NCBI GenBank assembly: GCA_963785435.1
Contig: CAWAVE010000008.1
Coordinates: forward strand, 178,191 to 242,190
Length of the DNA: 64,000 nucleotides
Direction of reading: 5' to 3'
Source of the DNA: an uncultured Solirubrobacterales bacterium
GTDB lineage: Bacteria; Actinomycetota; Thermoleophilia; Solirubrobacterales; Solirubrobacteraceae
Position numbers and translations under genes: made by a program. Each line of letters begins with the position of its first letter. Position 1 is the first letter of the stretch. The notes beneath the pieces were generated by a model, which was not told where the DNA came from, made no database searches, and saw only the letters and a list, made by a program, of their open reading frames with translations. This document shows positions 256 through 30,929 of this stretch, piece after piece.

Positions 256-680
256 CGACTGCTCTGCGGGCAGTGGCGGATGTCAACGTCCTCGTCCCGG
301 CGGCTCGCACGCCGAACGGGCTCTGCGGACGGCTGCTTGATGCGGCGATAGACGGGCGCTGGCGACCCGTGATCTCGCTAACATTGGTCCAAGAGCTTGA
401 GGATGTGCTCGCCCGACCGAAGTTCAGGGGTGTGCTTGGCCAGGAGACCACGGATCGCTTCCTCACGCGATTGCTCTCGATCTCGGAGTGGGCGCAAGAC
501 CCAAAGGGAGCGCCCGCCGCATTGACACGCGACCCCGACGATGACTATCTGCTCGCGCTTGCGCAAGCCAGCAACGTCGATGTGCTCGTCTCCGGAGATC
601 GCCATTTGACCGATCTCACAGACACACAGCCGCCGATCGAGACGCCAATGCAGTTCTCACAGCGCCTGGCTGAGCTATAG
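252..680 (+). CDS. vapC: PIN-domain ribonuclease toxin (VapC-like), 142 aa
   Basis: GTG start overlapping antitoxin stop; PIN hallmarks: N-terminal VADVNVLV (Asp), later acidic residues DDDYLLALA ... VLVSGD. Confidence 0.7.
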   Translation: MTTALRAVADVNVLVPAARTPNGLCGRLLDAAIDGRWRPVISLTLVQELEDVLARPKFRGVLGQETTDRFLTRLLSISEWAQDPKGAPAALTRDPDDDYLLALAQASNVDVLVSGDRHLTDLTDTQPPIETPMQFSQRLAEL

Positions 681-2411
681 CCGGATCTCGATCTGGGGGG
701 TGTCATTCGAGGGTTCGAGTCCCGTCGCTCCCGCCATTCGACCTATGTACGAACCCCGGCCCCGAAAATCGGGGTCGTGGTCGTCTTGGAGGGTTCCGGC
801 CTTATTTTGGGGCGCCCTGGGCCGTTTCTGGCCCGTGTGGGGGCGTTCCTTGGTCTCGCGCAGCTCTTGGATGAGCCGCGCGATGGTCTCATAGAGCGGT
901 GTTCGCTCTGCCTGGATGTTGTCGGGGTCTGAGACTACGAGCGCGAGAAACACGGCTTGGTTGACGAGCCGTCGGGCGCTCTCTGGCAGCGCCTCGTAGA
1001 TGACCTTCTCGTCCAGGATCGCCAGGGCGTCATCGAGGGCGGCCATCACGTCCTCAACCTCACGCTCGGCGGCGTCCGCCCACTGCTGCGCCTTGGCGCG
1101 CTCAGTCTCGATGCGCTCTTGCTCGGCCTTCAAGACCTCCTCGGAGACGCCGCCTTTGTAGTAGAGCTGCACGAGCTTCTGCTGCTCGCCGGTCAGGTCG
1201 TGCAGCCTGCGGGTGTGGCGGGCTGACTCACGGCGGGCAATCTCGCTCTTGGACTGCACGTAAGAGCGCAGGGCCTCACGGACTTCGTTTTGCTCGCTGG
1301 TTTTGTAGGTCTCGCGCTTGTAACGGCGCACGATCGCGCGTTCGGTGCGATCTACCGGGAAGTACGGCGCGGCGCACTGTTCCTCGCGTTGTACGCGGCT
1401 GAGGCAGGAGAAGTATTCGTACTGCCCGCCGCATTTGCCACGGTGGCGCCCGTAGCCGAGACGCTTCCCGCAGATACAGAAAATCGTGCCCTTGAGGTAG
1501 TGGTGGTGTTTGTGGGAGCGGTCTCCGCTGATGCGGTGGCTGTCGAGGACCTTCTGCACCTGATCGAAGGTGGCACGGTCGATCAGGGCGTCGTGGCGGC
1601 CCTTACCCTTCACGCCGTTGTGGGTGACTACACCCACGTAGTAGTCATCACGGAGCATCCGGTGGACCATGCTGCGCGTCATCGGTTTGCTCGGGCGCTT
1701 GAAGCTGCCACGCGTGCGCATCCCGGCACTCTCAAGAACGTCCGTGATCGTCGTGATGGTGTGGTCGCCGGTGGCGGCGAGATCGAACGCGAGCTGGACA
1801 TAATGAGCGCGGTCATCATCAACGGCGATTGCTGCGACCTCGCGGCCGGCCACGTTTTCGCGGACGTTCAGGTAGCCGATGCGGGCAACGCCGACAGTGC
1901 CACCATCGAGGAACTTACGTTCCAGGCCGACCTTGACCTTCTGTCCGTCGTCACGCGAGCGGAAGGCGTTGACCCCGGCCATGATCGCGAACAGCAGGAG
2001 TCCTTGGGGGCTGTCATCGACCGGCTCACGGGTGGACGTCAGCTTCGCGCCGTGGCTCTTGACCTGAGCCAGCAACCAAAAGGCGTCAGACTCCTCACGG
2101 GCGACCCGCGAGAGGTCATAGAAGATGACATAGGTCGGGCGTACCTCGCCAAGCTCTGAAAGCATCTGCTGGAGCGCCTGACGGCGGGTGTTGGTTCCAG
2201 TTCTACCAGGCTCGACATACTCACGAACGATACGCGCACCCAGTGAGGCGGCGTAGCGTTCGCAGGCTTGGCGCTGCGCCTCGATCGAGTACCCCTCTGG
2301 GTTATGCCCCGTGAGCTGCCCGGTGCTCGAAACACGCAGATAGATCACCGCCGTGATCTCCGACTCGAAGTCGAGCACATTAATTGGTGCTTCCTGCGTC
2401 AGTACGGTCAC
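675..2411 (-). CDS. large serine recombinase (integrase), 578 aa
   Basis: N-terminal resolvase catalytic domain (VIYLRVSSTGQ), recombinase domain, zinc-ribbon Cys cluster (CICGKRLGYGRHRGKCGG...FSC), coiled-coil C-terminus. Confidence 0.9.
   Translation of the reverse strand: MTVLTQEAPINVLDFESEITAVIYLRVSSTGQLTGHNPEGYSIEAQRQACERYAASLGARIVREYVEPGRTGTNTRRQALQQMLSELGEVRPTYVIFYDLSRVAREESDAFWLLAQVKSHGAKLTSTREPVDDSPQGLLLFAIMAGVNAFRSRDDGQKVKVGLERKFLDGGTVGVARIGYLNVRENVAGREVAAIAVDDDRAHYVQLAFDLAATGDHTITTITDVLESAGMRTRGSFKRPSKPMTRSMVHRMLRDDYYVGVVTHNGVKGKGRHDALIDRATFDQVQKVLDSHRISGDRSHKHHHYLKGTIFCICGKRLGYGRHRGKCGGQYEYFSCLSRVQREEQCAAPYFPVDRTERAIVRRYKRETYKTSEQNEVREALRSYVQSKSEIARRESARHTRRLHDLTGEQQKLVQLYYKGGVSEEVLKAEQERIETERAKAQQWADAAEREVEDVMAALDDALAILDEKVIYEALPESARRLVNQAVFLALVVSDPDNIQAERTPLYETIARLIQELRETKERPHTGQKRPRAPQNKAGTLQDDHDPDFRGRGSYIGRMAGATGLEPSNDTPQIEIRL
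700..746 (+). other. tRNA 3'-end-like fragment (T-loop GGTTCGAGTCC + acceptor strand CGCTCCC + G + CCA) with no 5' half: putative att core / integration-site remnant
   Basis: Sequence tcattcgagggttcgagtcccgtcgctcccgcca matches the canonical T-arm/acceptor/CCA layout but no D-arm/anticodon arm precedes it; lies inside the 3' end of the recombinase ORF; related copies at 20.4-20.75 kb and 29.72 kb. Confidence 0.45.
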
Positions 2412-3473: not shown

Positions 3474-3854
3474 TTAGTCGTCCTCGGTCATGGCTTCCAG
3501 CGGAATGGTGCCCGCCTGACCTAGATGCCAGGCCACCTCAAAGCGGTCGGTATCGAAGTCGGCCAGCACGTCCAGTGACGTAACGATCAGGTAGTCAAGC
3601 TCATGCACTCTGGCGAGCTCCACGGCCTGATACAAACCAGGTCGCACAAACCGAAATTCACGGATGTCCACGAACTCACCGACCACTTCGGCCTTGAGCC
3701 TCGCCGCTTCTCGACGACAGAGTTCCCCTTGCCGAGCAACCGACAGTTCGGTGACGCCGTGTTTTGGGTTTGGTTCGCACATGTAGATAACGGCTCGCCA
3801 GACCTTTGGCTCCTCCTGACTGCGTTCGTCACTGTTGCGTCTTTCGAAATTCAT
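3474..3854 (-). CDS. resolvase-like domain protein lacking catalytic serine (127 aa)
   Basis: ATG at 3852-3854 with AAGGGAGA RBS; sequence AVIYMCEPNP..LSVARQ..LIVTSLD resembles resolvase N-domain topology but YxRVS motif is CEPN. Confidence 0.45.
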   Translation of the reverse strand: MNFERRNSDERSQEEPKVWRAVIYMCEPNPKHGVTELSVARQGELCRREAARLKAEVVGEFVDIREFRFVRPGLYQAVELARVHELDYLIVTSLDVLADFDTDRFEVAWHLGQAGTIPLEAMTEDD

Positions 3855-3922
3855 CTCTGATATCTCCCTTCTGCAAGACCTCCTTTTGTTGTTATGGGTT
3901 TCAGGGGGCTGCCGGCCCTGCT

Positions 3923-8006: not shown

Positions 8007-8372
8007 GGCCACCCGCGCTTTCCCGGTGCTGCCGCTTACCAGGAGAGGGAGCCGGACGTGTGGGTTTATCCTTCGCCGCGCGTTCCCGGCGCTGCTGAAC
8101 CAACCGCTTCCCCTGCAAAAAATAGACATAGGCAAGGAGATCAGTATCAATCTCCGTACGCCTAATCCCCTTGATATGAATTCTCCGTGCCATAAGTAAT
8201 TGCACCTCCTTTCACTGTGAGTTGTTGTTACATAGCTACCTCCTTGTTCGTGTTTTGTTCGGTATCAAACCTCCTGAGTATTGATCAACTGAAATGCTTG
8301 AGTCAAGGACTTTTTTACGTCACCAGGACTGAATCCGGCTGTGCTTTGGGACAAGGCCGAGCATCGTTTTAG

Positions 8373-8543: not shown

Positions 8544-8839
8544 TGCCTAACCTCCACGGCGGTGCCCTCGATAACGTCACCGTCATCGAAACTCCGGTGA
8601 GTGCGCGCAGCGTCCAGCATGTCGTGGATCGCCTGCCGCCTAATACTGTGGATGGTCTGTTCGGCCCGGTACTGCTCCAGCCGCAAGTTCTGACCGCGAG
8701 ACATCCGCCGCCGCAGCTTGCCGGCGAGCTCCTCGATGGACACGATGGCGACGAACAGGACGCCCCCCGCCACCAGAAAGACCACGCCGGCAGCCAGCAG
8801 CCCAAGGACTACTTCAATCAGGTCACGGAGAATCATCAC
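8540..8839 (-). CDS. hypothetical membrane protein (99 aa)
   Basis: N-terminal TM segment LLAAGVVFLVAGGVLFVAIV; stop/start overlaps link it to a 4-gene minus-strand operon. Confidence 0.5.
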   Translation of the reverse strand: MMILRDLIEVVLGLLAAGVVFLVAGGVLFVAIVSIEELAGKLRRRMSRGQNLRLEQYRAEQTIHSIRRQAIHDMLDAARTHRSFDDGDVIEGTAVEVRQ

Positions 8840-17837: not shown

Positions 17838-18353
17838 TCAGGTTTTTAGGAAGTCAAATAGCAAGGCGCGCCGTGGCAGCGTTGCTCGCGTTAGTTCTTT
17901 TCGGAAGACTTCGACCTGGGCGCGTAGATCCTCCATGCGATTGAAGAGAGTGCCCATGTTCATCTCGGTGTCTGTGGTGATCGGCGGCGAATTCCATGCG
18001 TCGTGGGCCTCGGCGCCTGCGGTACGTTGCGCGACCTTGACGAGCGTTTCGTAGGAAGCCGAGAGCCGTTCGTCGCCATCGGCGGCGAGCAGCACTTGGC
18101 AGGTTGTGAGCTCGGCCTTAACCGTCGAGAAGTGAGCAGCGAGGCGTACTCTCTCGCTGCTGGCATGCTCTGGCTCGTGACGGCGGCGGCGGATCATGAA
18201 CGGCATCTCTTGGTAGGCGAGGATCGCCGCGAGCGATCGGGCGTGCAGATCGCGACGACGTTGACGCTCTGTCCTGTCTCCGCTGAGCCAAAGGCCGGCG
18301 ATGACGCCAACGAATGCGATGATCGAGCCCGCGACTGGGCCGCTGATCTTCAT
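17838..18353 (-). CDS. hypothetical protein with single N-terminal TM helix (171 aa); candidate membrane effector of NTase operon
   Basis: Start taken at MKISGPVAGSIIAFVGVIAGLWL; last gene of 3-gene minus-strand operon. Confidence 0.5.
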   Translation of the reverse strand: MKISGPVAGSIIAFVGVIAGLWLSGDRTERQRRRDLHARSLAAILAYQEMPFMIRRRRHEPEHASSERVRLAAHFSTVKAELTTCQVLLAADGDERLSASYETLVKVAQRTAGAEAHDAWNSPPITTDTEMNMGTLFNRMEDLRAQVEVFRKELTRATLPRRALLFDFLKT

Positions 18354-18370
18354 GCTGAGCAGCGTCGCGG

Positions 18371-18817
18371 TCAGCAACACGGGCAGGCTGCTGGTCTGGG
18401 GTGTGTGCCGGGGGACTCGGGTTTTGGCCAAGGGTTCCCGGCACGGCACTCGGCTTCGCAGTAGGCGTGCTGCTCGACTTGGACGGCGAGGGCGAGCAAG
18501 CCGTCCTCGGGTGTCCATCGGTGCTCAACGGGGTCAGTACTGAACCACATACAGAGGGAGCTGTCCCCCCAGCGGTGCCGCAGACAGACCGGCCCATCGA
18601 TCCAAACCCGGGTCTCCGGTGGGGTTGCCTTGAAGACGGCCTGGACTAGTCGTTGGTGGTCGTGGACGGGTACGTCGATCGCGAAACGGTACGCCAGCCC
18701 AGGCGGGTCGCCGAGCAACTCCCGTTCGAAGGTCATCCCTTCCAGGCGTGCGTCACGCTCGAAGATGATCTGCTCCGCGATTCCTTCAAACCAAGCGGAT
18801 GCCCGGCTACGCACCAT
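18371..18817 (-). CDS. hypothetical Cys/His-rich protein (148 aa), middle gene of NTase operon
   Basis: ATG at 18815-18817 overlaps NTase stop by 11 nt. Confidence 0.5.
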   Translation of the reverse strand: MVRSRASAWFEGIAEQIIFERDARLEGMTFERELLGDPPGLAYRFAIDVPVHDHQRLVQAVFKATPPETRVWIDGPVCLRHRWGDSSLCMWFSTDPVEHRWTPEDGLLALAVQVEQHAYCEAECRAGNPWPKPESPGTHPRPAACPCC

Positions 18818-19898
18818 GTGAGCGGGTCAGCTTCGTGGGGCCTGGGATACTCAACGCGGCCGCTGCAGCCGTAGCATCAGAGGCTCTGAAAGCACTGTTG
18901 AGTACCTGCTTTTGGTGCTCGCGGATCGCTTCGATCTCGGTGCCATAGAGCTGCTGCAACTCGATACGGGCACCAGCCGTACTCAGCTGACCCGTAGCGT
19001 TCGTGACGATCTCGGCCATCTCGTACAGCCGCTCAGAGGCGCGCATCTGCGTAACTCCGTCGGGAAGGCTGATCGGACGCTCGACGACGGGAGATGGGTC
19101 CTCGGTCAACCCGACCTGGATGGCAGCAGCAGCATCCGCAAAGAAGCCCGCGAGTGTCTCGCCGATGTTGCATACCTCGGTTATGTGCTCAAGAGCAAGA
19201 GCGCTCACGTTCCATGAGCACATGACCTTCATCCGTCCAGGCATGAACTCGTCGCGCTTGATGGCTCGCTTTGCGAGTCGTATGGCTCGGGCGCGGTGTA
19301 CGCGAAGGGTCTTGTCGTCGCGCTTGGTCATGAGCCACGTGTGGTGTTGTGGATCGGCAGCGTCCCAGCTGTTCTGGCGACGGTTCGGAATCCACAAGCC
19401 GCGTCCTTCCGCACGTGCCAGGCCGACAATCAGATCGACATATGGGTCGACCGGACCCCAGGCATCGACATCGACGGTCTCGTTGAATTCGAACTTGATC
19501 GCGCGGTTGCCGTCGAGATTGACCGTTGCATCCGGGTAGCCTCGAGCGCGCAGGCGGGGAGCTATGAACTCCACGAACAGCTGGATGAACGCCTCAGGGC
19601 CACGGCCGGTAGCGCCAGCGTCAGGGCCAAACGCCCGGAACTCATCAAAGCGCCGGTCAATCAGGACGCCGCAGTCGGCATCTTCCAGAGGCTTGTTGTG
19701 AACGCCGTGCGCGATCGAACCGGAGACATAGCTATCACGAGCGGCCTGGTGCTCCATCGCGATTGCGAGTACTAGGTCTCGCCGGCTCTTTGCCACCGCA
19801 AGTACCGGCATCGGTACTGCGATCTCTTTGAGGATCTCCTGCAGGACGCTATCTACCGGGAGCTTGCTGCCGGTAGTACGGGTCATGAGGCTGGACAT
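18807..19898 (-). CDS. putative cGAS/DncV-like nucleotidyltransferase (Pol-beta superfamily, CD-NTase-like), 363 aa
   Basis: ATG 19896-19898 with AAAGGAGG RBS; GS-x10-[ED]hD motif (SGSIAHGVHNKPLEDADCGVLID), third acidic VDPYVDLIV, later basic helix + SWNVSALALEHI resembling the conserved C-terminal hydrophobic cGAS/OAS motif. Confidence 0.55.
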   Translation of the reverse strand: MSSLMTRTTGSKLPVDSVLQEILKEIAVPMPVLAVAKSRRDLVLAIAMEHQAARDSYVSGSIAHGVHNKPLEDADCGVLIDRRFDEFRAFGPDAGATGRGPEAFIQLFVEFIAPRLRARGYPDATVNLDGNRAIKFEFNETVDVDAWGPVDPYVDLIVGLARAEGRGLWIPNRRQNSWDAADPQHHTWLMTKRDDKTLRVHRARAIRLAKRAIKRDEFMPGRMKVMCSWNVSALALEHITEVCNIGETLAGFFADAAAAIQVGLTEDPSPVVERPISLPDGVTQMRASERLYEMAEIVTNATGQLSTAGARIELQQLYGTEIEAIREHQKQVLNSAFRASDATAAAAALSIPGPTKLTRSHGA

Positions 19899-20384
19899 TG
19901 GACCTCCTTTAGCTCGACTACTAGAACGCGTGAGGGCACCACACCCTCGACAGCCATATGAAATCAAGAGGTGCGGACGGTGACCTGCAGAAAGTTGGCG
20001 GCCCGCCACCCAGGGTGGTTAGGTCCGGGTACAGGCGGGCCGCCGAAGCGTTCCAGCAGAAGCGCCGCAGTTGTATCGGATACGGCTGATGGACGTTCTC
20101 GCGAGCGAGCGGCCCTGGTGCTAAGTGCGGACTGTGCGGCCCGGCGGTAGGGGGCCTCCCGGCTCCCGTACCTCAGATTCCGAACCGCTCCTCATGGAGC
20201 CGCCGAATAAGGGGCCACGGAGATTTCGAGAACCTTTCCGCCATCCCCGAGACGATGCATTTGCTCGAAATCTAGGAGTCTTGTTCGGGGCTCTGCTCAT
20301 GGATTCTGATCGCGTCTGCGGCCCGGTGTCGTGCTTGCCGACCTACTGGGTCCATGAGATGCTCAAGAAGGCGGTCGAGGATGG

Positions 20385-20750
20385 GGTTCGCACGTTGTCC
20401 CGGTCTCCCCGCCATTGGCCTTATCTTCGTTGTTTTCCCTGGAAAATCGCTACTTTTGGTGTCCGGTCGCTCAGGGGCCAAATGGTCGATGTACGAACCT
20501 GGGTTCGCAGCTTGTCCCGAAGCTCCCGCCATTGGCCTTATCTTCGTTGTTTTCCCTGGAAAATCGCTACTTTTGGTGTCCGGTCGCTCAGGGGCCAAAT
20601 GGTCGATGTACGAACCTGGGTTCGCAGCTTGACCCGAAGCTCCCGCCATTGGCCTTATCTTCGTTGTTTTCCCTGGAAAATCGCTACTTTTGGTGTCCGG
20701 TCGCTCAGGGGCCAAATGGTCGATGTACGAACCTGGGTTCGCAGCTTGAC
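20385..20750. repeat. 117-bp direct tandem repeat, 3 full + 1 partial copies; each unit contains internal inverted repeat (ggccaaatgg/ccattggcc) and a degenerate tRNA-3'/att-like core (gggttcgcagcttgacccgaagctcccgcca)
   Basis: gccattggcc recurs at 20411, 20528, 20645 (period 117); last unit switches to tactttaccc as at recombinase 3' ends. Confidence 0.9.
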
Positions 20751-21556
20751 CCGAAGCTCCCGTACTTTACCCCCGCCCTCCCTGTCGCTTCTTCGTGCCG
20801 GTTCTCGAAGAACGGCAGGAATGAGGGCTTTGGTTGGACCGCGACGACGCGGCCGTCGTCCAGCCATACGCCGTCGAAGATGAGGCTCAGGAACTGGCGC
20901 TTGTTGGCTGGGTCGCCCTCGTTGGTCCAGAAGATCGTGAAGTCTTCGAGCACCTTGCCGGCCTGGTCGAGATCGGGGATCGGTCCTGGAGCGAGGCTGG
21001 ATAGCTCGGCATTGATGGCGTCGCGACGGGCCACGTATTCGGGGCGGGGGAGGTCGCCGAGTTCGTAGAGATCGCGCATCCTGCGCAGGCGCTCTTCCAG
21101 CGCCCCCTGCCGCTTCGCGGTCTTGCCCGCGGTGGCGGCTGGGTTGGCGAGGCGCTGCAGGATCTCTTTCTGGATAGTGCGGCTGGGCGTGAAGCCAGTA
21201 AGGAACTGCACGAGCTGCTGCTCGACGCGCTCAGCGGGCGTGATCGGCTGGTCGCAGGAACGGTTCGCGCGACGGGTCGAGCAGTAGTAGCGGGCTTTCA
21301 GGTCTCGGCCTCCGCTGCTGCCTTGCATCTTTGCGTGGCAGCGCTTGCAGCGCGCGAGGCCACGCAGCACATACTTCGGTGACGGCCTTCCTGGCTCGAG
21401 TGTGCGGGCACGCTCCCGGCGCATCTGCTGCACATGGTCGAATAGCTCCTCAGGCACGATCGCCTCGTGCAGACCTTTGATCGCCTTCGACTTGTCGCGG
21501 CGCCCGGAGACGTAGCCGCAGGATTCGATCGCGATCGCGTTCGCGCCGCGATATCA
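20705..21556 (-). pseudogene. truncated large serine recombinase (recombinase domain + zinc ribbon + C-terminus; catalytic N-domain missing)
   Basis: In-frame TGA at 21557-21559; upstream of it sequence is unrelated; retained part has CKRCHAKMQG..YYCSTR zinc ribbon and recombinase-domain segment IESCGYVSGRRDKSKAIKGLHEAIVPEELF. Confidence 0.75.
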
Positions 21557-22139: not shown

Positions 22140-22450
22140 CGCTCGCAGTCTGATCAAATGCGGGCTCCCGATCCGATCCCCTACGTCAGCCAACCTGCGG
22201 TCGTCTTGGGGTTTTCGGCCTATTCCCAAGCGTCCCATGTAAGAACGCGCCGCGCGCGGTTTGACGGCGACGATCGTGCCGTCGTACTGCCAGATCTGCA
22301 GAGCGTTGTCAGTAGGCGGTGGCGCTCGGCGGGCGAGGTCTCGGCCTCCCAGAACGCCGCGAAGTCCAGCAGCAGCCGCTCGGCTTGGGCGCGCTGCGGG
22401 TCGGCGGGTGGCGCGAGCCGCTCGACCTCGTCTTGGACGGCTTGGCGGCG
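22140..22450 (-). pseudogene. degraded C-terminal remnant of a serine recombinase (frameshifted)
   Basis: Translations LLDFAAFWEAETSPAERHRLLTTL and QIWQYDGTIVAVKPRAAFLHG (different frames) parallel VLEDFTIFWTNEGDPANKRQFLSLIFDGVWLDDGRVVAVQPKPSFLPF of the 20.7-kb remnant. Confidence 0.45.
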
Positions 22451-22600
22451 CAGCGCTTTGGTTCGAGCTCTGCCTTGATTTGGGCCCACTCGTAAACCAC
22501 GACCCTCACGAAGATGCCACGTCCCGAGCCTTGACAAGCCGCGCCCGCTTAGCGAGACTGTTCGACTGTTTAGACCCAATGGCGAGGGAGGGGCCGGGAA

Positions 22601-22918
22601 ATGTCGTCTTCGATCGTGGTGGGGCCGGGAGACGCGAGCGTCAGAACGGTGGAACTCGCGTGGTCTGAAGTGCTGCTTGAGATGTCGACGCCTGAGAGTG
22701 CGGCTCAGTCGGCAGCTCACGGCCTAGGGATCGATCCCGTTTCCCTAACCCAAGCCAAGGTCGAGGTAAGCCAGCGTGAGGGCGACTTGGGGGTCACGTT
22801 TCTTGTGATACTAGGCGCCCCCGTCGCCAAGCATGCACTCGTATCGCTGTGGGACGATCTAGTGCGCCCAAGACTTCGGGCCAAGTTCGGCGTAGATGGT
22901 GGTCCGCACGTCGACTGA
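22601..22918 (+). CDS. hypothetical protein (105 aa)
   Basis: Stop overlaps next ATG (TGATG) - translational coupling. Confidence 0.4.
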   Translation: MSSSIVVGPGDASVRTVELAWSEVLLEMSTPESAAQSAAHGLGIDPVSLTQAKVEVSQREGDLGVTFLVILGAPVAKHALVSLWDDLVRPRLRAKFGVDGGPHVD

Positions 22919-23967
22919 TGCAGTCGGTTCCCGTACCACACGAAGACTGGCCACGCAACCGACCGCAAGAGATCGCGCTTGCTGCACGGATAGTTATGCT
23001 GTCTGCCGCCGCCAAGACGTGCCCGCCAGAAGGAGGTACCGACGGGCAGCGCGCGCTCATTCAATGCATTCAGCTAGCGACGCGCGCAGAAAATGTGGAG
23101 GGCCAAACATTCGACATGTTCCTGTCGCACGCTATTGCGACTCTAAGAGATCTCGCGGCGACGGTGCTCCAGCACGACTCCAAGATCAAGAGAACCATTG
23201 AAGATGTCGAAGCGTCGACGCCGCGCGACACCATAGGGGAAATGTACTCGCAACTTGTGCAACTCGTCTCTAACGCGTACGCTGATGCTCTCGGGGAAAA
23301 TATCGACGTTCCACTGGAGCGTACAGTGCGAATGACTCCCCCGAAGGATGCGCCGTTCGACCTATGTGGCCATGTGCCGCAAACGCGAACAGCAGTCATG
23401 CTGGTCCTCTATCTTGCCGACTTTGATCTTAAGTCGCTGGCGCTCCTTCCTCGCGTCCTGGCTCACGAGCTCGTCTGCCACGTCGGCGCTCGGCACACGG
23501 ATCTTTGGGAGCAGCCTCCAACGCCAGAGTGCCGCCAGTTCTTCTCAGATGGCTTTATGGACTGCATCGCGTGGCGACTTTTGCTGATCTGGCTCGACAC
23601 CGGAGACATCCCGTCCGCGACGGTCGTAGGACACCTTGAGGAGACTGAGGTTCCATACGCGTATCATCGTCCGGAGATATTCAGCGCCGGACGCGGGGCG
23701 TGGGGAAATTGCCGCGCAGCCGCGGTGCGGCTGGGGTCGGTCAGCCGTAACAGCAATGCGACCGACTCGGCTCGTAACCGCGCCGCAGCCGAATACGCCG
23801 CTCTGGAAGCCGCGATGCGGTTGAACGCATCCGTCAGCTCGATACGGCCGAAGGACAGGTTCGCGCTCAGCGCCAGAACCGCAGAGACGGCCGCCACCAC
23901 GAGATTCGCGGAGCTAGTCTCGGGGCACGCAACGCCTGGGCAACTACTGGAAGATTACGATTCGTAG
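22918..23967 (+). CDS. hypothetical HExxH-motif protein (349 aa), possible minimal zinc metallopeptidase
   Basis: VLAHELVCHVG with downstream Glu candidates (WEQ/PEC); first of lower-GC operon. Confidence 0.55.
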   Translation: MQSVPVPHEDWPRNRPQEIALAARIVMLSAAAKTCPPEGGTDGQRALIQCIQLATRAENVEGQTFDMFLSHAIATLRDLAATVLQHDSKIKRTIEDVEASTPRDTIGEMYSQLVQLVSNAYADALGENIDVPLERTVRMTPPKDAPFDLCGHVPQTRTAVMLVLYLADFDLKSLALLPRVLAHELVCHVGARHTDLWEQPPTPECRQFFSDGFMDCIAWRLLLIWLDTGDIPSATVVGHLEETEVPYAYHRPEIFSAGRGAWGNCRAAAVRLGSVSRNSNATDSARNRAAAEYAALEAAMRLNASVSSIRPKDRFALSARTAETAATTRFAELVSGHATPGQLLEDYDS

Positions 23968-23989
23968 GAACTTTTGCCGGGCATCCGAT

Positions 23990-24015
23990 AGTTTCGGTAG
24001 CATAATACCGAAACT
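23990..24015. promoter_or_regulatory. perfect 10-bp inverted repeat agtttcggta-gcataa-taccgaaact upstream of 604-aa gene
   Basis: Read directly, in AT-richer intergenic segment. Confidence 0.4.
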
Positions 24016-24032
24016 AATCTAGATCCAGTCCA

Positions 24033-24210
24033 GTGTCAGACCTCTCGTCCCATACGCTGCGCGTGCTCCGGGCCGCGCTGAAGCTCAAGGCATTTACCAT
24101 GCCACAACTCGCGACAGAGGCAGGAGTCAGCTATGAGTCGGTGAAGCGCACCGTCCGGGGGAGAAGGGGACCACCATGCGCCCCACCGGGCAGACTGAGC
24201 CGCGCGGAGT
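24033..24210 (+). CDS. possible small HTH DNA-binding protein (~59 aa), below ORF-track cutoff
   Basis: Translation ...HTLRVLRAALKLKAFTMPQLATEAGVSYESVKRTVRG resembles an HTH; overlaps start of downstream gene by 35 nt; GTG start uncertain. Confidence 0.3.
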
Positions 24211-25990
24211 AGGTCGTCCTGCGGAAATTTGGGAAGTCGTTGATCGGGCTCCGTTGGAGGAGAGACTCGCAGCCGTCGGTGAGGAGCTGCGCGTCACCCT
24301 TCCGAATGAGCTTCCCTCCGACCTCCCAGAGGTCGTGAGCACGGATGCGACCCTTGCGGTCGCGGAAAATGAACTGGTCTTCGCTACGCGTGCCCGCGAT
24401 CCGGTAGACGCAGCGACGTTTGCGCGTCACGCGATCGCGATACTGCAGGATACGGGAATCTCCCTAAATAACTCTGATGCCGCGATCTCGCCGCCGGGGA
24501 CTCTCGTTACGGAAGACAATCTAACTGAGCGCGAAGCCCGCGCCTCTATCGTCGGCGCACTAGCAGAATTCATTGTCAGTGACGAGGCCAGCGGCCTAGG
24601 CGGGCCGCTCTGGCGACACGCCTTCCGCCGCCTCTCGTCTGGAGTGTTGGCACAAGGCCTCAGTGTTCAGCAGCACTTCCTTATCGACCTTGTACGCATC
24701 GCCGACGAACGCATCACGGCGCACGATACTCTTCGGCGGCAGCCTCGAGAGCTAGCCGACTGGATCGTCGCACACCTCGAAAGCTCGGCAACCACGAGTC
24801 CGGACAGCCAGGACGACATTCGCCCGACAGATGAGCACACGAGGCTTGCCCTTGCGTGCTTGATTGCTGAAATCGCCTCGGGTGCCCGCGACCTTAGCGC
24901 TGATGCGCGCGAAAGGTTGCACCTCATTGTTCGCCAAGGGTTCGCTGCTGGGGGTGCTCCGCCATCGACCACTGTGAAAATGTTGGTCGATGGTCTTTGC
25001 GAACTAGCCCTCTCGGATGACGGGGAGGCGGCCGGCGCGGCGCGTGAAACACTGCTAGTGATTCGCCAGCCTCGCAGTAGCGACTTCTGGTATCGACTGA
25101 GATGGGCATCGCCCGACGTGTCCATGCCAAAGATATTTGAGGGTCTTGCCCACATCGATCTCGCGGAGGCGTTCTCCTACCTTCAGACCGAACTCGCCGA
25201 GTCGGACGCGGTCGAGGATGTAAGAAACGTTCTTATCACGTGCCTTCCGGCGCTTGACTACAGCAACCGCACGGCCGCCCAGGACCACTTCGCAGAATTC
25301 CTAGCTACCGTTCCGGTTGATCTCCGGATCCAGTTCGCGCCGCTTCCGACGGTTGCCGGACTTACCTGGCAGCCCGCTCCATTTGAGAGGCTTCTTGTTC
25401 GCCACTTCCTTAGCATCTTGATGCGTTGGCGTGCATACGCAAATAGCGATAGTCGAGACCCGCGTGTTCTTCGCCAGACCGAAGCCCTTGCACGCGAGCT
25501 TAAAGCTCTTGCCGCCGAAGTGCTCCTTCTTATGAGCCGTGATGAGCGGCGACGTCTCAGCCAGGTCCTAGCCGTAAACCTTTTCGATCAGCCCGCGGCC
25601 TCCCTTTGTGTGCCATTGCTACTGGAGCTAGGACTTGAGTCGGACGTCGCCCGCTCAGTGATCGAGTCAGCGCCTAGCAACGAGGAAGCATGGACTGAGA
25701 TAGCGGATTGGTATTGGGATGTCTGCCCGCGGTCTGAACTAGACGCGGGCCGTCGTAACGCACTTATTGCTGCGCTACGTGCCGGGCTTAAGCAGTACGG
25801 TGACATCTTTCTTTTCGCTCTCGCTAAGCGCGCATTGTCAGAAGGAGAGCTCTTGAGCGAGCTGACGGACAATCCTGACCTGGAGCCGAGAATCAAGCTT
25901 GAGCTTGAGATCGCAATGACACAGTCCTACGGCACCGCGGCAACGGACCTTGAGGCAGTGGTAAGCAACTTCGACGAATCGCTCGAATAG
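24176..25990 (+). CDS. hypothetical large protein (604 aa), predicted all-alpha, no recognisable catalytic motif
   Basis: ATG with GAGAAGGGGA RBS; lower GC. Confidence 0.7.
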   Translation: MRPTGQTEPRGVGRPAEIWEVVDRAPLEERLAAVGEELRVTLPNELPSDLPEVVSTDATLAVAENELVFATRARDPVDAATFARHAIAILQDTGISLNNSDAAISPPGTLVTEDNLTEREARASIVGALAEFIVSDEASGLGGPLWRHAFRRLSSGVLAQGLSVQQHFLIDLVRIADERITAHDTLRRQPRELADWIVAHLESSATTSPDSQDDIRPTDEHTRLALACLIAEIASGARDLSADARERLHLIVRQGFAAGGAPPSTTVKMLVDGLCELALSDDGEAAGAARETLLVIRQPRSSDFWYRLRWASPDVSMPKIFEGLAHIDLAEAFSYLQTELAESDAVEDVRNVLITCLPALDYSNRTAAQDHFAEFLATVPVDLRIQFAPLPTVAGLTWQPAPFERLLVRHFLSILMRWRAYANSDSRDPRVLRQTEALARELKALAAEVLLLMSRDERRRLSQVLAVNLFDQPAASLCVPLLLELGLESDVARSVIESAPSNEEAWTEIADWYWDVCPRSELDAGRRNALIAALRAGLKQYGDIFLFALAKRALSEGELLSELTDNPDLEPRIKLELEIAMTQSYGTAATDLEAVVSNFDESLE

Positions 25991-25997
25991 AGGGCGA

Positions 25998-28427
25998 GTG
26001 ACTACTGCGCGCGCTCAACGATTTCTCGAGGCATTTTCTGCTGCGGTACACGACCGTACTCTGGAAGAGAATAACTATCAGATATATCATTTCTTTGACG
26101 CTGACGTTCTCCTGCGGCTTATCTTTGGCTTCCGGGATGCATTTAACCTTCAGCTGATTCTCGACAGTAAAGCAAAAGATACTGATGGTTTGTCTGGCCA
26201 GAGGCTCCTTATGGGTGCGCTGTTGGGGCAGGGAATAGGTACACCAACGAACCTTCGCGCTCTGCCGCCCCATCTTTACGAGGTGCAGCGCGCGGTATCG
26301 ACGCGACGACCGATGGACTCACAACGCTTTCAATTTATCTCTGATCTCCTCGAAATCGATGAGCTGGTAGATGACCTCGTTAATGCGCTGCGAAATGATG
26401 ACCCGGATGCGCTTTTTGAGCGCTTTCTTCACTATAGTCCCCAAATATTCTACGGGGTGGAGCTTCTTAGTGGCGGGTGGGAGTCGAGATTGCGACGACT
26501 ACTGCGGCTAGGAATCGGATCCGGGAGTCCGCTCGATAGCGGCGCGGATATCCTTGAGAGTCAGGCTTTCGACCTAATTCTCCGGCATGTTGATGCCTCT
26601 CAACGAGACGACCAGTCTCGAGGCAGGGCAGGCGGTATATCGGGAGTCCGAGATGCCATGGCGCTCGCGCTCGTCGCTCGTCATATTTCCGAGTCGACGG
26701 TACAGCAGCCTCCCTTTGCAGTAATGAGATTCTATACGGAGACCGACAGGATTAGGCGAGCCTGGCGCAATAGAGACGTGCGCGACACACTAACCTATGA
26801 GATTCGAGAGCACGAGATTCCATCAATGGATCTCGGCGAGCACGGCGTTCTGCGCACCACCGAGTACTATCTCATCCGCGCTTTGTTTCCGAGGCTCGCC
26901 TATCTCGAAGACCCGCCTTCCCACGAGAAGGATGTGTCAGCACAGAGCCTCGTACGCGAGAAAATATTGGATATTTACACCATCGGGGACGAACTTGCGA
27001 AGACCGCGAGACGGCTAAGGCTAGGGGGGGTAACCGAGACGGCGCTAGCCGAGTTTCGTGTAGGAGATAGCACAATCGGGCGCTTTATGGACGAGGTAAG
27101 CGACTTGTCGTCTTGTGGTGCTGCTTGGGAACAGCTCATGACCACCCGCGTGCGGCCAGGTATCCCAGAGAGATTGCTTGAGCAGCTGACGAGAGTGCGC
27201 GAAATGAAAGAAGAGCGAGCAGACGACTTGGCCCAGTCACTTGAGATGCAAATTGGCATGCTAGATAAACGGACGCGAGAAGTCGCGGTATTCACCGAAG
27301 CGTACGTGCATGTGCATGAGGCGCTCGTCCGGTGGAAGGGTGCCGTGAGGCCAAGGTTCGGACGGCTCGGCGATCACGTAGGGCTTCGCCGGTGGGGTTT
27401 CTTGGTGGACGATATCGATGAGGAAGCTCTCGCAAATCTTGTCGACGCATACGATGACTGGCGGTCTGAGGCTAACGGCGACACTTCTGTCTGGCGCACT
27501 CACTTCACGATCGAACTTACACATCGGATGAGAGACCTAGCAGGAGCCCCATTGAATGACGGAGACGAAATAGGATCAGCTGTGGCGCTGCTCGGGTTCC
27601 TCTGGCTTATCGAGGACTACGCTTCGATCGCTAACAGAGGGCGAGCCCTCTTGGACGGAATTGGTTTCAGGCTCTCGCGTAGCGGGAGCGCACTCGCGAG
27701 AAAGAGCGACGCCGACGGGATGTGGGAAAGGGTTGGAGGTGCGGTCGAGAATCTGATTGCGGTTGCTGACGTAGCCCTTCTAGCCGCCCGGGTGCAGGAC
27801 GAGCCTCGCTCTCCAGATGTGGACGAGCTAGTTGCTCAGGCGCGGTCACGGGCTGCGCACCTTATGCCACCCCATCGGCGGTTTCCTGCGACCGAGAGTT
27901 CAATTGCCTTTGGTGGCGCATTTATTCGTTTTCGCATCTGGCGGGCGCTAAACCATGTCTTGATGGCGATAGGTGTCGGTGATGCACAGCGGCTTAGACA
28001 TCCGGCACTCGCGAAAGAAAGCCTTGAGATGAGCTCTCGCGCTCTTGAACTCACTGATCGTGAGGATCCCATGCACATTCTCCTTCTCAATCACTGTGTC
28101 TATGTGGCGAGTATCGCAGGGCTCCAGGTAGACAATCTTCCTGACCTAGTGCGCCAGTTGATTGCTTACAGGCCCGTAGGCACGCTGGAAGGTGGCTGGT
28201 CATACCACCTTGACTGTACCCTTGCTTATCATTACTATCGGCGTGCGGCTGCACTGATCGGCCACAGCGACCGCGACGCGAGGCTCGTCGGATCAGCTCG
28301 TAAGGACCTTCGGGAGGCGGAGCGGTGGCTTGATCTGGTGCCTGACGATGTTACTGACGCTGAGGTCATCGCCCATCGTGGATTGGTACGTGAGCTTGAA
28401 GTTGAACTGGAGGCATGGTTAGACTGA
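25998..28427 (+). CDS. hypothetical large protein (809 aa), no recognisable motif
   Basis: 8-nt intergenic gap to upstream gene (operon); lower GC. Confidence 0.75.
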   Translation: MTTARAQRFLEAFSAAVHDRTLEENNYQIYHFFDADVLLRLIFGFRDAFNLQLILDSKAKDTDGLSGQRLLMGALLGQGIGTPTNLRALPPHLYEVQRAVSTRRPMDSQRFQFISDLLEIDELVDDLVNALRNDDPDALFERFLHYSPQIFYGVELLSGGWESRLRRLLRLGIGSGSPLDSGADILESQAFDLILRHVDASQRDDQSRGRAGGISGVRDAMALALVARHISESTVQQPPFAVMRFYTETDRIRRAWRNRDVRDTLTYEIREHEIPSMDLGEHGVLRTTEYYLIRALFPRLAYLEDPPSHEKDVSAQSLVREKILDIYTIGDELAKTARRLRLGGVTETALAEFRVGDSTIGRFMDEVSDLSSCGAAWEQLMTTRVRPGIPERLLEQLTRVREMKEERADDLAQSLEMQIGMLDKRTREVAVFTEAYVHVHEALVRWKGAVRPRFGRLGDHVGLRRWGFLVDDIDEEALANLVDAYDDWRSEANGDTSVWRTHFTIELTHRMRDLAGAPLNDGDEIGSAVALLGFLWLIEDYASIANRGRALLDGIGFRLSRSGSALARKSDADGMWERVGGAVENLIAVADVALLAARVQDEPRSPDVDELVAQARSRAAHLMPPHRRFPATESSIAFGGAFIRFRIWRALNHVLMAIGVGDAQRLRHPALAKESLEMSSRALELTDREDPMHILLLNHCVYVASIAGLQVDNLPDLVRQLIAYRPVGTLEGGWSYHLDCTLAYHYYRRAAALIGHSDRDARLVGSARKDLREAERWLDLVPDDVTDAEVIAHRGLVRELEVELEAWLD

Positions 28428-28589: not shown

Positions 28590-29067
28590 GCGGCGAGTGC
28601 AGCTGGACTCCATTTTGGCCGGGCCCCACGACACCCAATACGCATCATTCTCGCACATACTCCCACCTGGCGTGTGCTGGCCTCGCTGGAGTTCGTCTGA
28701 GGTAGACGCCTACGGTGCCTCGTGGATCGTTGGCTTCGTCACTGGCGTTGAGCAGAAGGTCCTGCAGACCGCTCGGCGTGCTCGTCCTCGACGCCGACGA
28801 CGATCGTTAGCTTGGCGTCGGATTGCCGACATGGGCCTCGACGTAGCGCGGATCGACCGCCGCATCGAAATTGCCGGGCTGAGGGTCGGGATCTGTCCAC
28901 GGGTCGTGCGCCATATTCATCTCCGAGGCAGCTTACGCCTGCGCGGCAGGGAATCCCAGGCCGTTACGATCGGCCAGCTCCAGAGCAGCTCACCACAAGC
29001 CTTTTGGGACGACCGTATGGCACAAGTCGCGATGCTATTCTGTTCATGTGACCACGGAGGTGCCCAC

Positions 29068-29323
29068 ATGAAGGTTGTGACCGTCTGTGACTTCCGCGAC
29101 CACGCGACTGAGATGTTTCGCTCGGAGGACGTGATCCTGGTCACGCGCGAAGGGGCGCCAGCGGGGTTATTCCTGCCGTGGAACACGCCGGAGTTGCCGG
29201 TCGAGGTTCACAAGGGAGGTGTTCCTGCGACTATCTGAGGAGGTCGGGACGCAGCTAGCAGCGTCGGGGGTAAGCGAGTCAGAGGTGCTGGAAGATTTCG
29301 CTGCCTCCCGTAGTAGTCGCTGA
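29068..29323 (+). pseudogene. Phd/YefM-family antitoxin, copy 1, frameshifted (extra G near 29215 vs copy 2)
   Basis: MKVVTVCDFRDHATEMFRSEDVILVTREGAPAGLFLPW.. nearly identical to intact copy at 29954; caagggaggtg vs caaggaggtg. Confidence 0.55.
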
Positions 29324-29709
29324 CGCGAACGTAGTCCTCTTAGCGCTGATCGGTGGCCGCGCCCGCCTCGTCATCGCCTCCCCTCAAGGACCAGCCTGTA
29401 TCGCAACCCGGCGGTTGCCAAGGACAGCGCCCGCCACGTTCCTCGCCTCGCCGCAAAGCGCCGTCTCGATCAGGCACTTCTATTCGCGGCCCTGCGGTCA
29501 TGCCGATCGTGTGGAAGCCGGCGGCGACCTATGACGATCTGCGCGGGAGGCTGAACGGCGCACGCCGCTCGTGACCCCGACGATTGGCCGACCGTCGCGC
29601 TGGCCCTCAAGCTGGACCTACCAGTTGGTCCCAGGACAAGGATCTACGCGACGCTGGCGTCGAGGTCTTCACGACGGGTGATCTGCTCGACGCCCTACGT
29701 CAGCGATGA
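29311..29709 (+). pseudogene. PIN-domain toxin, copy 1, decayed (frameshifts/stops)
   Basis: Begins VVADANVVLLALIGG like copy 2, then loses frame. Confidence 0.4.
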
Positions 29710-29764
29710 GGCGGCTCGGCCCAAACCTCGATCTCCTCGATCTTCGGGGGCAAACCAGGGACCC

Positions 29765-29910
29765 CGTCGCTCCCGTACTTTACCCCCGCCCTCCTTGTCG
29801 CTTCTTCGTGTCGGTTCTCGAAGAACGGCAGGAATGAGGGCTTTGGCTGGACGGCTACGACGCGGCCGTCATCGAGCCAGATACCGTCGAAGATGAGGCT
29901 CAGGAAGTGG
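29765..29910 (-). pseudogene. ~145-bp 3'-terminal fragment of a serine recombinase gene (about 90% identical to 20755-20900), preceded by degenerate att-like core at ~29720-29764
   Basis: cgtactttacccccgccctcc..tgtcgcttcttcgtg..ggttctcgaagaacggcaggaatgagggctttgg shared by both loci. Confidence 0.5.
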
Positions 29911-29953
29911 CGCCGCGATGTTATCCTTCTCGTGTGACCACTGAGATGCCCAC

Positions 29954-30208
29954 ATGAAGGTTGTCACCGTCCGGGATTTCCGCGACCATGCGACCGAGAT
30001 GTTTCGCTCGGAGGACGTGATCTTGGTGACGCGTGACGGGACGCCAGCGGGGTTCTTCTTGCCGTGGGACACGCCGGAGTTGCCGGTTGAGGTTCGCAAG
30101 GAGGTGTTCCTGCGGTTGTCTGAGCAGGTCGGCGCGCAGCTAGCGGCTTTGGGGGTAAGCGAGTCAGAGGTGCTGGACGATTTCGCTGCCTCCCGTAGTA
30201 GTCGCTGA
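29954..30208 (+). CDS. type II antitoxin, Phd/YefM family (84 aa)
   Basis: MKVVTVRDFRDHATEMFRSEDVILVTRDGTPAGFFLPW.. characteristic of YefM/Phd. Confidence 0.75.
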   Translation: MKVVTVRDFRDHATEMFRSEDVILVTRDGTPAGFFLPWDTPELPVEVRKEVFLRLSEQVGAQLAALGVSESEVLDDFAASRSSR

Positions 30209-30596
30209 CGCAAACGTAGTTCTCTCAGCGCTGATCGGTGGCCGCGCCCGCCACGTCATTGCATCCCCGAAAGGGCCAGCCTGCGTCGCCACCCAGGCAG
30301 TCGCAGAAGAGATCGCCCGCCATATTCCTCGCCTCGCCGAAAAGCGCCATTTGGATCAGGCACTTCTATTCGCGGCTCTGCAGGTCATGCCGATCGCGTG
30401 GAAGTCTGGGGCTACCTATGACGAACTTCGGGAGGAGGCTGAGCGGCGCATCGCCGCTCGTGATCCCGATGATTGGCCTACCGTCGCGCTGGCTCTCAAG
30501 CTGGACATACCTGTCTGGTCCCAGGACAAGGATCTACGCGACGCTGGTGTCGAGGTCTTCACGACAGGCGATCTACTTGATGCCCTACCTCAGTGA
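30195..30596 (+). CDS. PIN-domain toxin (VapC-like), copy 2; no canonical start codon in frame (body starts VVVADANVVLSALIGG) - possibly non-canonical initiation or early pseudogene
   Basis: +1 frame relative to antitoxin; PIN N-terminal D, later acidic residues and QDKDLRDAGVEVFTTGD tail; no ATG/GTG/TTG found between upstream TAA and the PIN core. Confidence 0.5.
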   Translation, partial: VVVADANVVLSALIGGRARHVIASPKGPACVATQAVAEEIARHIPRLAEKRHLDQALLFAALQVMPIAWKSGATYDELREEAERRIAARDPDDWPTVALALKLDIPVWSQDKDLRDAGVEVFTTGDLLDALPQ

Positions 30597-30929
30597 GGCG
30601 GCTCCCTCCGACCTCGATCTCCCCGCCATCCGGAGGCAAGCCAGGGACCGACCCAATCGAGGCCGCGACCTCTCTGGGCCTCCGCGCCCACAGGGGTCTC
30701 GCTGACGAACGGCGCTCGCCAATCACCGATCCGCAGTTTCCACTCTGGTGTGTTCGTGAGCTTACGGATCGCTCCAGGCCTCCCGGATTCTCCGCAAGCC
30801 AGGCCGCGTCGCTCACTCGGAGTTCTGCAGCGCCTCATCCAGCGGCACCGTGTGCCCGTCAGCCAGGTCCGCCCAGCCTTCAGCCGCGGGCGGCCTTGCC
30901 GTCATCTCTCAAACGGTAACGCCCCGGCG

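Follow-up and report, generated by a model that had tools for sequence, protein, structure and literature searches.

A 117-bp tandem repeat in a Solirubrobacterales tRNA-Asp island is probably a triplicated relic of serine-recombinase attachment junctions

The closest described counterparts of the locus analysed here are the serine-recombinase genomic islands at ssrA in Dehalococcoides, which consist of stacked elements (PMC3146451), and the tandem arrays of integrative genetic elements (IGEs) (PMC7192596). There, a serine recombinase targets the T-loop/acceptor part of a tRNA-like gene; its own gene lies on the reverse strand beside attL, and direct repeats of the target's 3' end stand between one element and the next. 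All three traits recur in the 64,000-nt stretch of DNA studied here (the window), which comes from an uncultured Solirubrobacterales bacterium. It also resembles such arrays in harbouring what appear to be decayed elements that have kept only their ends and are flanked by att sites in direct orientation, as are the gene-less cis-mobilizable elements of IGE arrays. In kind, the biology of the island is thus known: accretion at a tRNA-like gene, a serine integrase and att-only remnants. Unlike the ssrA islands, the Solirubrobacterales locus has tRNA-Asp as its target, with a single core common to two recombinase families that are unrelated; unlike both ssrA islands and IGE arrays, the 'elements' between cores measure only 44–72 bp and one 117-bp block is present in three perfect copies. 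As a variant of this biology, the perfect tandem triplication of a putative double att scar is unusual, and no description of tandemly repeated att half-sites was found in a limited set of publications on integrative elements.

The leftmost ~36 kb of the window have a GC content of ~60%, compared with ~70% further right. This low-GC part in all likelihood represents serine-recombinase integrative elements piled up at the 3' end of a tRNA-Asp(GTC) gene; a search with ARAGORN found no tRNA gene within the window, only 3'-end fragments being present. An intact large serine recombinase gene, rec2, lies at the left, and a truncated gene of a second family, rec1, adjoins the array on the right (Table 1). 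The DNA between rec2 and the array encodes a DNA methylase, a Replic_Relax protein and an FtsK/HerA-like ATPase. In gene content the resident element resembles actinomycete integrative and conjugative elements (AICEs), which likewise combine such proteins with a site-specific recombinase beside a tRNA gene. Classical AICEs such as pSAM2 encode tyrosine integrases, whereas the recombinase of the resident element is a serine recombinase. Directly to the left of the array is a CBASS operon composed of genes for a cyclase, an E2 protein and a 1TM effector. For comparison, 44 related loci (L001–L044) and about 250 homologous proteins (P numbers) were used.

The initial annotation described a direct tandem repeat of 117 bp in 3.1 copies, with gccattggcc starting at 20411, 20528 and 20645, an inverted repeat ggccaaatgg...ccattggcc in each unit and a switch to tactttaccc in the final copy. 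All of these features are present, the switch falling at 20763. TRF delimits the repeat to 20408–20762 (period 117, 3.0 copies, score 703, with 99% matches and 0% indels); no other repeat in the window comes near it in strength. As assembled, the array has the layout X0-Y-X1-Y-X2-Y-X3, where X is 28 bp and Y 89 bp long. Matches to the 28-mer X (GGGTTCGCAGCTTGACCCGAAGCTCCCG; consensus GGGTTCGCAGCTTG(T/A)CCCGAAGCTCCCG) with at most one mismatch start at 20501, 20618 and 20735, with 0 expected from 100 shuffles. X0, at 20384–20411, is a fourth and more diverged copy, which differs from X1 at 7 of 28 positions. The X sites flanking Y are in direct orientation, and no homologous ORF is found in Y. 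The three copies of Y are 100% identical, in agreement with the earlier statement that the array, lacking unique spacers, is not a CRISPR. A reading of the array as a tRNA gene or pseudogene was rejected, no cloverleaf being detectable by ARAGORN.

Table 1. Features of the array and of the flanking recombinase elements (window coordinates)
Feature	Position	Strand	Basis or remark
attL-type junction of the resident rec2 element (predicted): GGGTTCGAGTCCCGTCGCTCCCG (711-733), then P' arm CCATTCGACCTATGTACGAACC (734-755)	711..755	+	exact tRNA-Asp 3'-end match
rec2, intact 578-aa large serine recombinase	675..2411	-	Pfam Resolvase, Recombinase, Zn_ribbon_recom
Coding remnant, probable native C-terminal tail of a rec2-type recombinase (...NPILDRLLEHLMDPVGRQARHRAADAIRIHEQSPEQDS, stop)	20272..20383	-	BLASTP
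X0, putative variant P arm and crossover core (GGGTTCGCACGTTGTCCCGGTCTCCCCG)	20384..20411	+	left array boundary
Y copy 1, 89 bp: segment a, core2, CCA and segment b	20412..20500	+	identical to the other two Ys
X1, putative consensus-type P arm and core, T at position 15	20501..20528	+	28-mer match
Segment a of Y copy 2: putative decayed P' arm and first bases of a rec2-type 3' end (CCATTGGCCTTATCTTCG...GGAAAATCG)	20529..20572	+	anchored identity
core2 and b of Y copy 2: TTGGTGTCCGGTCGCTCAGGGG, CCA, P' arm AATGGTCGATGTACGAACC; putative attL-like fossil	20573..20616	+	local alignment
X2, putative P arm and core, A at position 15	20618..20645	+	28-mer match
Y copy 3	20646..20734	+	identical to the other Ys
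X3, putative P arm and core; right array boundary, abuts the rec1-type element end	20735..20762	+	28-mer match
P' arm of the rec1-type element (predicted), TACTTTACCCCCGC	20763..20776	+	reverse complement conserved in ~27 loci
Truncated rec1 large serine recombinase gene, zinc-ribbon and C-terminal part	20780..21457	-	PF13408 only (Pfam)
Second rec1-type junction (predicted): core CCCGTCGCTCCCG, P' arm, 138-bp rec1 3'-end remnant	29763..29913	+	91% identical to 20750-20900

Judging by the related loci and the sources of the homologous proteins, the DNA apparently stems from a metagenome-assembled genome, and an assembler could in principle have produced the array by expanding a single 117-bp segment or stuttering on it. 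We consider this extremely unlikely. The sole base that separates X1 from X2 and X3 is T15A: X1 has T at this position, as do its relatives, and X2 and X3 have A. The deviating base of X1 matches the ancestral state seen in the relatives, which stutter would not give. In addition, the short-read Logan contig ERR11571141, which carries the neighbouring cyclase gene at its positions 540–1631, starts, according to the coordinates alone, at window position 20437. This is the end of the last 31-mer that still holds an X0-specific base, and it is there that a de Bruijn graph with an assumed k of 31 must branch if Y has several different predecessors. By this coordinate inference, with k=31 assumed, an independent short-read contig ends at the expected branch point, which indirectly supports the existence of the repeat in the reads.

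The right boundary of the array is set by the rec1-type element. The array ends exactly where the conserved P' arm of the truncated rec1, TACTTTACCCC, starts; this sequence is the conserved element end beside the recombinase gene in ~27 related loci, where it directly abuts tRNA-Asp(GTC) or 3' fragments thereof. Read on the other strand, the 'tactttaccc' side corresponds to GGGGTAAAGTACGGGAG, which lies just downstream of the recombinase gene in ~27 loci and is followed in nearly all rec1 loci by CGACGGG(A/G)(C/G)TCGAACCC. The rec1 relatives comprise 28 loci, found in a scan of one genome per species, all of them in Solirubrobacterales MAGs, and share 75–85% DNA identity with rec1. In seven of them (L001, L003, L004, L006, L010, L014 and L019) a complete tRNA-Asp(GTC) gene is reached, the 3' end of which is CCCGTCGCTCCCG; in other rec1 loci the conserved end is followed by tRNA-Asp 3' fragments of varying length. 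Since the core is shared with the tRNA-Asp 3' end in the related loci, the rec1 family is concluded to insert there, with CCCGTCGCTCCCG as the core. Elements or their remnants are commonly stacked in series at these loci. The homology of the window to most rec1 loci ends at 20750, in the middle of X, whereas window positions 20736–20777 are 95% identical to positions 6681–6722 of L003. The initial annotation had called this end of the array the recombinase side. A recombinase gene does adjoin it, but 20780–21457 is a truncated remnant of a family other than that of rec2: its ORF of 250 codons is truncated N-terminally and the catalytic domain is missing, and the two proteins are not close relatives (BLASTP E=0.9). 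Many of the 110 rec1 homologues are likewise fragments. An exact-sequence look-up of the truncated recombinase protein (P0001) gave no record.

The left boundary belongs to the rec2 family. In the resident rec2 element a perfect 23-nt fragment of the tRNA-Asp 3' end is found at 711–733 (711–736 with CCA), and the rec2 ORF reads through this att junction into tRNA antisense. Most rec2 homologues, of which 120 C-termini were inspected, also end in tRNA-antisense peptides, for example MAGATGLEPATSAVTGQRSN; in P0159, P0208 and the fragment P0239 the recombinase body and a native tail are found in one ORF. The C-terminus of rec2, ...GSYIGRMAGA, shares its frame with the tail encoded by X and its left flank. 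The rec2 frame thus runs across attP, and the sequence to the left of X0 therefore encodes the native C-terminal tail of such a recombinase. Consistent with this, the tail remnant (20272–20410) matches the C-terminus of P0159 with a BLASTP E value of 2.9e-16 and that of P0208 with 1.5e-7, and its flanks are homologous in L003, L033, L037, L038 and L039. We regard 20272..20383 as the predicted right-end flank of an integrated rec2-type element. Both recombinase families evidently use the same putative tRNA core, CCCGTCGCTCCCG. In L003 an intact tRNA-Asp gene is followed by the flank of the rec2 junction, 95% identical over 100 bp, and by a rec2 fragment.

In order to see what X represents, its occurrences outside the array are informative. 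A single-copy X is present in L003, L033, L037, L038 and L039, with the homologous left flank before it and the rec1 P' arm after it; the minus strand of X and the flank encodes a conserved short tail, GASG(R/Q)AAN...LLE.L.EPIGRKARRRAAEAIR, which ends at a stop codon. X1 differs from the X of L003/L033 by one mismatch across 27 shared bases. A scan with the X pattern retrieved 14 matches from metagenomes, of which 4 were true homologues and the others chance occurrences inside unrelated genes, and 0 matches from viral contigs. Two loci, L043 and L044, which are the contigs of P0159 and P0208 and have the same gene order as the element of the window, contain an uninterrupted attP (GGTTCGCAG...C(T/C)CCCG, CCAT...(C/A)AACC) within an ORF that goes on to encode the conserved tail; in L044 it reads GGTTCGCAGCTGGTCCCGAAGCTCCCG, crossover, CCATTTGCTTTGGTTTCAAACC. 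The complete rec2-type attP is 49 bp long and is delimited by inverted outer motifs, GGTTCG on one side and CGAACC (L043) or CAAACC (L044) on the other. Because X is carried both by these uninterrupted attP sites and by the ORFs that bear the tail, it can be assigned with confidence as the predicted conserved left half-site on the element side, i.e. the P arm and crossover core, of rec2-type elements.

These sites conform to what is known of large serine integrases. Those of phiC31, Bxb1 and A118/LI act on attP sites of ~50 bp with inverted outer motifs, the motif is displaced outwards by 5 bp in attP relative to the attB of the host, and the identity between partner sites is limited to a short core (Rutherford et al. 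2013, PMC3783163). When the left half-sites are compared, X spans 27 nt from GGTTCG to the last base of the core and tRNA-Asp 22 nt, so that the two putative half-sites fit the 5-bp attP/attB shift; the X core, CCCGAAGCTCCCG, has 2 mismatches to the tRNA core CCCGTCGCTCCCG. The rec2 system differs from the described integrases in that its putative attB is a tRNA 3' end and its recombinase ORF crosses its own attP. The repeat unit had been proposed to hold a degenerate copy of an att core resembling a tRNA 3' end. The att-like character stands; X, however, is a conserved attP-type half-site, longer by 5 bp, and not the product of random decay. X0 encodes MAGRPGQRANP on the minus strand, and tails of the type GRPG(R/Q)(P/R)ANP recur in P0231, P0237, P0239 and P0240; X0 would accordingly be classed as a second, common subtype of the rec2 P arm. 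The X of L003/L033, the closest relative of rec2, is closer to X1–X3 than to X0.

The Y segment can be divided into two parts of different evidential weight. The right part, core2+b (20573–20616), aligns with the attL-type junction of the resident element itself at 713–755 (TTGGTGTCCGGTCGCTCAGGGGCCAAATGGTCGATGTACGAACC over TTCGAGTCCCGTCGCTC--CCGCCATTCGACCTATGTACGAACC); its local score against window positions 700–760 is 17, a value attained by 0 of 2000 shuffles (mean 6.4, sd 1.3). Translated on the minus strand it yields GSYIDHLA, identical to residues 554–561 of P0145, a pre-core motif. We take core2+b to be a decayed tRNA-Asp end followed by CCA and a probable P' arm. This arm and the next P arm, X, stand back to back (CGAACC-T-GGGTTCG). 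The left part, segment a, shows 20/37 identity to the window from 734 onward (p=5e-5) and 19/37 to the right side of the L044 attP (p=7.5e-4) in core-anchored, ungapped comparison; the corresponding value for L043, 12/37, is not significant, nor is an unanchored alignment to window positions 734–800, which 189 of 2000 shuffles equal. Segment a, being only ~55% identical to real P' arms, may be called P'-arm-like, an assignment that is weaker than the one for core2+b. Each 117-bp unit would accordingly comprise an attP-like joint (X/a) and an attL-like joint (core2/b). The one att core per unit that had been proposed earlier is thus present as a remnant, but the unit apparently holds two such junctions.

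The putative origin of Y is read from short internal similarities only. No Y homologue was found by BLAST in the 28 related loci, an exact-pattern scan with the centre of Y gave 0 matches in metagenome and viral contigs, and the Y peptide had no match among 1.84e9 representative proteins. A longer parent element of Y was not found in the related loci or in the metagenome and viral scans, and window positions 20000–21500 had no BLAST match in plasmid and phage collections. Derivation of Y from the 3' end of rec1 was also considered and dropped, since unanchored alignment of Y to 60 post-core flanks was no better than to shuffles. It is formally possible that Y is a miniature insertion, bounded by a 9–10-bp inverted repeat (CCATTGGCC/GGCCAAATGG), inside the 49-bp attP; this reading can be dispensed with, since the near-palindromic CCA(A/T)(A/T)TGG opens both arms.

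Taken together, the array is probably made of recently triplicated fossil att junctions that border two serine-recombinase elements in a tRNA-Asp(GTC) 3'-end island, without a dedicated function. The earlier suggestion of amplified att sites is borne out by the conservation of TACTTTACCCC, by the identity of X as P arm and core of the rec2 family and by the tRNA-Asp fragment at 711–736. In the mechanism that we propose, rec2-type elements would first have stacked beside the rec1 element, and their interiors would then have been deleted, leaving X0-Y-X; X0/a and core2/b would be the remains of these elements, miniature and gene-less, with only the att ends preserved. Unequal exchange between the X half-sites, which are direct repeats, would subsequently have raised the number of 117-bp blocks (Y+X) from one to three. 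Because the 117-bp copies are perfect, local amplification rather than three separate integrations is indicated, and because the Y copies are perfectly identical it appears to have been recent. General recombination or replication slippage would be the simplest route, although an exchange at the recombinase core is also compatible. Like an ordinary minisatellite or tandem duplication, the array consists of near-identical head-to-tail copies bounded by a pre-existing direct repeat, for which no function is required. Unlike in an ordinary minisatellite, the bounding repeats are recombinase half-sites, and the exchange would have taken place in the crossover core, not in the longer blocks of identity.

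The position of this exchange raises the possibility that the recombinase itself made the array. X1 and X2 are whole consensus-type X copies, not X/X0 chimeras; the exchange therefore would lie in the terminal 4 bp of the core, CCCG, outside the longer X0/X identity blocks of 9 and 8 bp. Such a junction, within 4 bp of the predicted crossover, is compatible with recombinase-mediated exchange and also with slippage at microhomology and conversion. If core exchange between misaligned sister chromosomes had produced the repeat, the X sites would be a functional hot spot or landing pad, with variable end-points of excision or extra docking sites for incoming elements. An intact, family-matched rec2 is present in the same island, X1–X3 are nearer than X0 to the X of its closest relative, and the outer ends of the 49-bp attP (GGTTCG/CGAACC) fall on the unit boundaries, all of which would suit this view. 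Yet gene conversion after an ordinary duplication would also yield non-chimeric X copies, a circle of 117 bp is too small to serve as an integration substrate, and the array is absent from all related loci scanned (L001–L042). Moreover, both sites to be paired would be P-arm sites, contrary to PMC3783163, according to which large serine integrases normally pair attP with attB only, or attL with attR together with a directionality factor. For this last reason we favour ordinary unequal exchange or slippage and judge manufacture of the array by the recombinase to be unlikely. The amplification likely leaves intact rec2 of the resident conjugative-type element with four candidate right-end (attR-like) sites.

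The length of the unit, 117 bp, is divisible by three, which brings up the reading of the array as a coding repeat of 39 codons, whereby excision at X1–X3 would yield a recombinase with one to three 39-residue inserts before the tail. The minus-strand frame, which the unit shares with the rec2 pre-core motif as well as the native tail, is open from X3 to the stop codon of the tail at 20272, and the peptides MAGASGQAANP and GSYIDHLA are genuine C-terminal motifs of the rec2 family. Openness is weak evidence here, however, as long ORFs cross the array in at least four of the six frames, and a plus-strand ORF (20125–20883) is likewise without homologues. A phmmer search of 1.84e9 representative proteins with the minus-strand ORF matched the native tail only, the repeat peptide being absent, and no Pfam match was obtained; a coding role is therefore highly improbable. 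Somewhat akin to it is a combined proposal, in which the array would be a recombinase-generated set of right-end sites variable in copy number, excision at X0–X3 giving recombinases with 0–3 inserts of 39 residues. This too is very unlikely; if true, the variable set of right ends would act as a tunable switch that links the choice of att site to the structure or activity of the recombinase.

A structured ncRNA array had been offered as the alternative to amplified att sites, and a regulatory element of the adjacent CBASS operon might be added to it, given that the array lies ~490–860 bp upstream of the cyclase start (19898, minus strand) and contains short hairpins (CGAACC-TG-GGTTCG, AGCTT-N6-AAGCT and TTTTCC-CT-GGAAAA). 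Neither proposal retains more than a trace of probability. Structure prediction for the unit, on both strands and in two registers, was no better than for shuffled sequences (z from −0.92 to +0.64), no Rfam family reached its gathering threshold, the only other hit being noise at E=9.7, and promoter-like or terminator-like sites were not found. Y is conserved nowhere in the related loci or in the metagenome and viral scans. Because the fold test is null, promoter and terminator motifs were not found, and TRF detected no comparable att array in 42 related loci (L001–L042), we infer that a dedicated function is unlikely and that amplification without function is the most likely history. The array is best read as a by-product of mobile DNA, and not as a novel type of gene or RNA. 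Mainly a curiosity in itself, it is an example of att scars at a tRNA gene that have turned into a minisatellite through local amplification, and annotation pipelines could take such a minisatellite for an array of RNAs or a CRISPR-like one.

More useful than the array are the att sites to which it leads. They define putative attachment sites for two large-serine-recombinase families of uncultured Actinomycetota (Solirubrobacterales), both targeting tRNA-Asp, and include a 49-bp attP and a pair of half-sites that obey the 5-bp shift; well-delimited att pairs of this kind could be candidates for genome-engineering integrases. As rec2-type genes span their own attP, integration would replace the native tail: a conserved C-terminal tail of ~40 residues would be swapped for residues encoded by tRNA antisense, which suggests a testable way in which integration could control the recombinase.

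The rec1-type end is not confined to the array. A second copy of its P' arm is found at 29776, within the 150-bp remnant at 29763–29913, which sits between two copies of a 736-bp antitoxin/PIN module (PIN_2, Pfam). In L016, L020 and L021 the conserved rec1 end is joined to an inverted partner arm, GTCCCGGACTTTGCCCC, and then to a PIN toxin gene, forming an attP-like joint. The joint at 29763–29790 of the window resembles these, its partner arm being more diverged.

In the family of rec2, the intact large serine recombinase of the resident element, the recombinase ORF spans its own attP (positions 675–760 plus 20272–20411 of the window; 5230–5464 in L043 and 5540–5773 in L044, two related loci with a complete attP). 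In the unintegrated or tandem form the C-terminal end of this ORF is a conserved tail of ~40 aa (..LDRLLEHLMEPIGRQARRRAAEAIR), which after integration is swapped for tRNA-antisense-encoded residues (MAGATGLEP...). The ORFs of rec1, the truncated recombinase gene of a different family, likewise extend across their own att site. Such an arrangement could make control of the recombinase dependent on integration.

Among the rec2 relatives P0131–P0230, the antisense read-through resembles differing tRNAs (MAERAGFEPAMEF..., MAEREGFEPSNEV..., MVRMRGLEPPPG...), and these ends suggest that a single recombinase family switches its targets among tRNA genes. In the left half-sites, to which the comparison is confined, the stretch between the outer motif GGTTCG and the core end measures 27 nt in the element (20501–20528, as well as the attP of L044) versus 22 nt in tRNA-Asp (711–733), which places the motif 5 bp farther from the core in the element. 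For these left half-sites, the offset agrees with the shift of the zinc-ribbon motif known between attP and attB of large serine integrases.

Database relatives of rec1 (P0001–P0110) are mostly fragments of 150–400 aa, compared with ~435 aa for the small number that contain a catalytic domain, and in the related locus L003 the rec1 gene (3239–5819) is interrupted by an IS21-like insertion with IstA/IstB-like ORFs. Decay appears to be frequent in the rec1 family. A third decayed recombinase gene, represented by a C-terminal remnant (see table), is located less than 2 kb from the 117-bp tandem array. At 29028–30649, two copies of an antitoxin and PIN_2 toxin module (736 bp each, 86% identical), the first of which is degenerate, lie on either side of a 150-bp remnant of the rec1 3' end. 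The left junction resembles an attP-type joint, with the PIN module followed by P arm, core, P' and recombinase end; joints of this kind are found in three related loci (L016, L020 and L021).

Features of the island (coordinates in the window)
Feature	Position	Strand	Remarks
Conjugative-element-like module, after rec2	3923–8150	-	N6/N4 DNA methylase, Replic_Relax protein, 771-aa FtsK/HerA-like ATPase
CBASS operon	17838–19898	-	Immediately left of array
CBASS oligonucleotide cyclase	18807–19898	-	
CBASS E2-like protein	18371–18817	-	
CBASS 1TM effector	17838–18518	-	
Recombinase C-terminal remnant (…LLLDFAAFWEAETSPAERHRLLTTL…)	22220–22720	-	76% DNA identity to L004 (related locus) 8623–8821
Three successive large ORFs (372, 604, 809 aa)	22849–28427	+	Inside rec1-remnant element
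ABC/SMC-like ATPase, 794 aa	32937–35321	+	PADLOC models mad3, mad8 (MADS defence system components)

The methylase, Replic_Relax and ATPase gene order is common to the window, L043 and L044. The cargo of the latter two is not alike, consisting of HamA and a DEAD helicase in L043 and of a protein kinase in L044; in the window, the resident element carries the CBASS operon as cargo at its right end. The three successive ORFs had no match in Pfam, PADLOC or NCBIfam and may represent uncharacterised cargo or a defence system. At ~36000 the GC content steps up from about 60% to about 70%, a change that probably marks where the island ends on the right. This spot yielded no att core, the best candidate (36677–36689) having two mismatches.

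Another tandem repeat, with a period of 120 bp (6.8 copies, 85% identity), is present in the related locus L024 (915–1738). This repeat does not visibly resemble the att sequences and is possibly a coding repeat.
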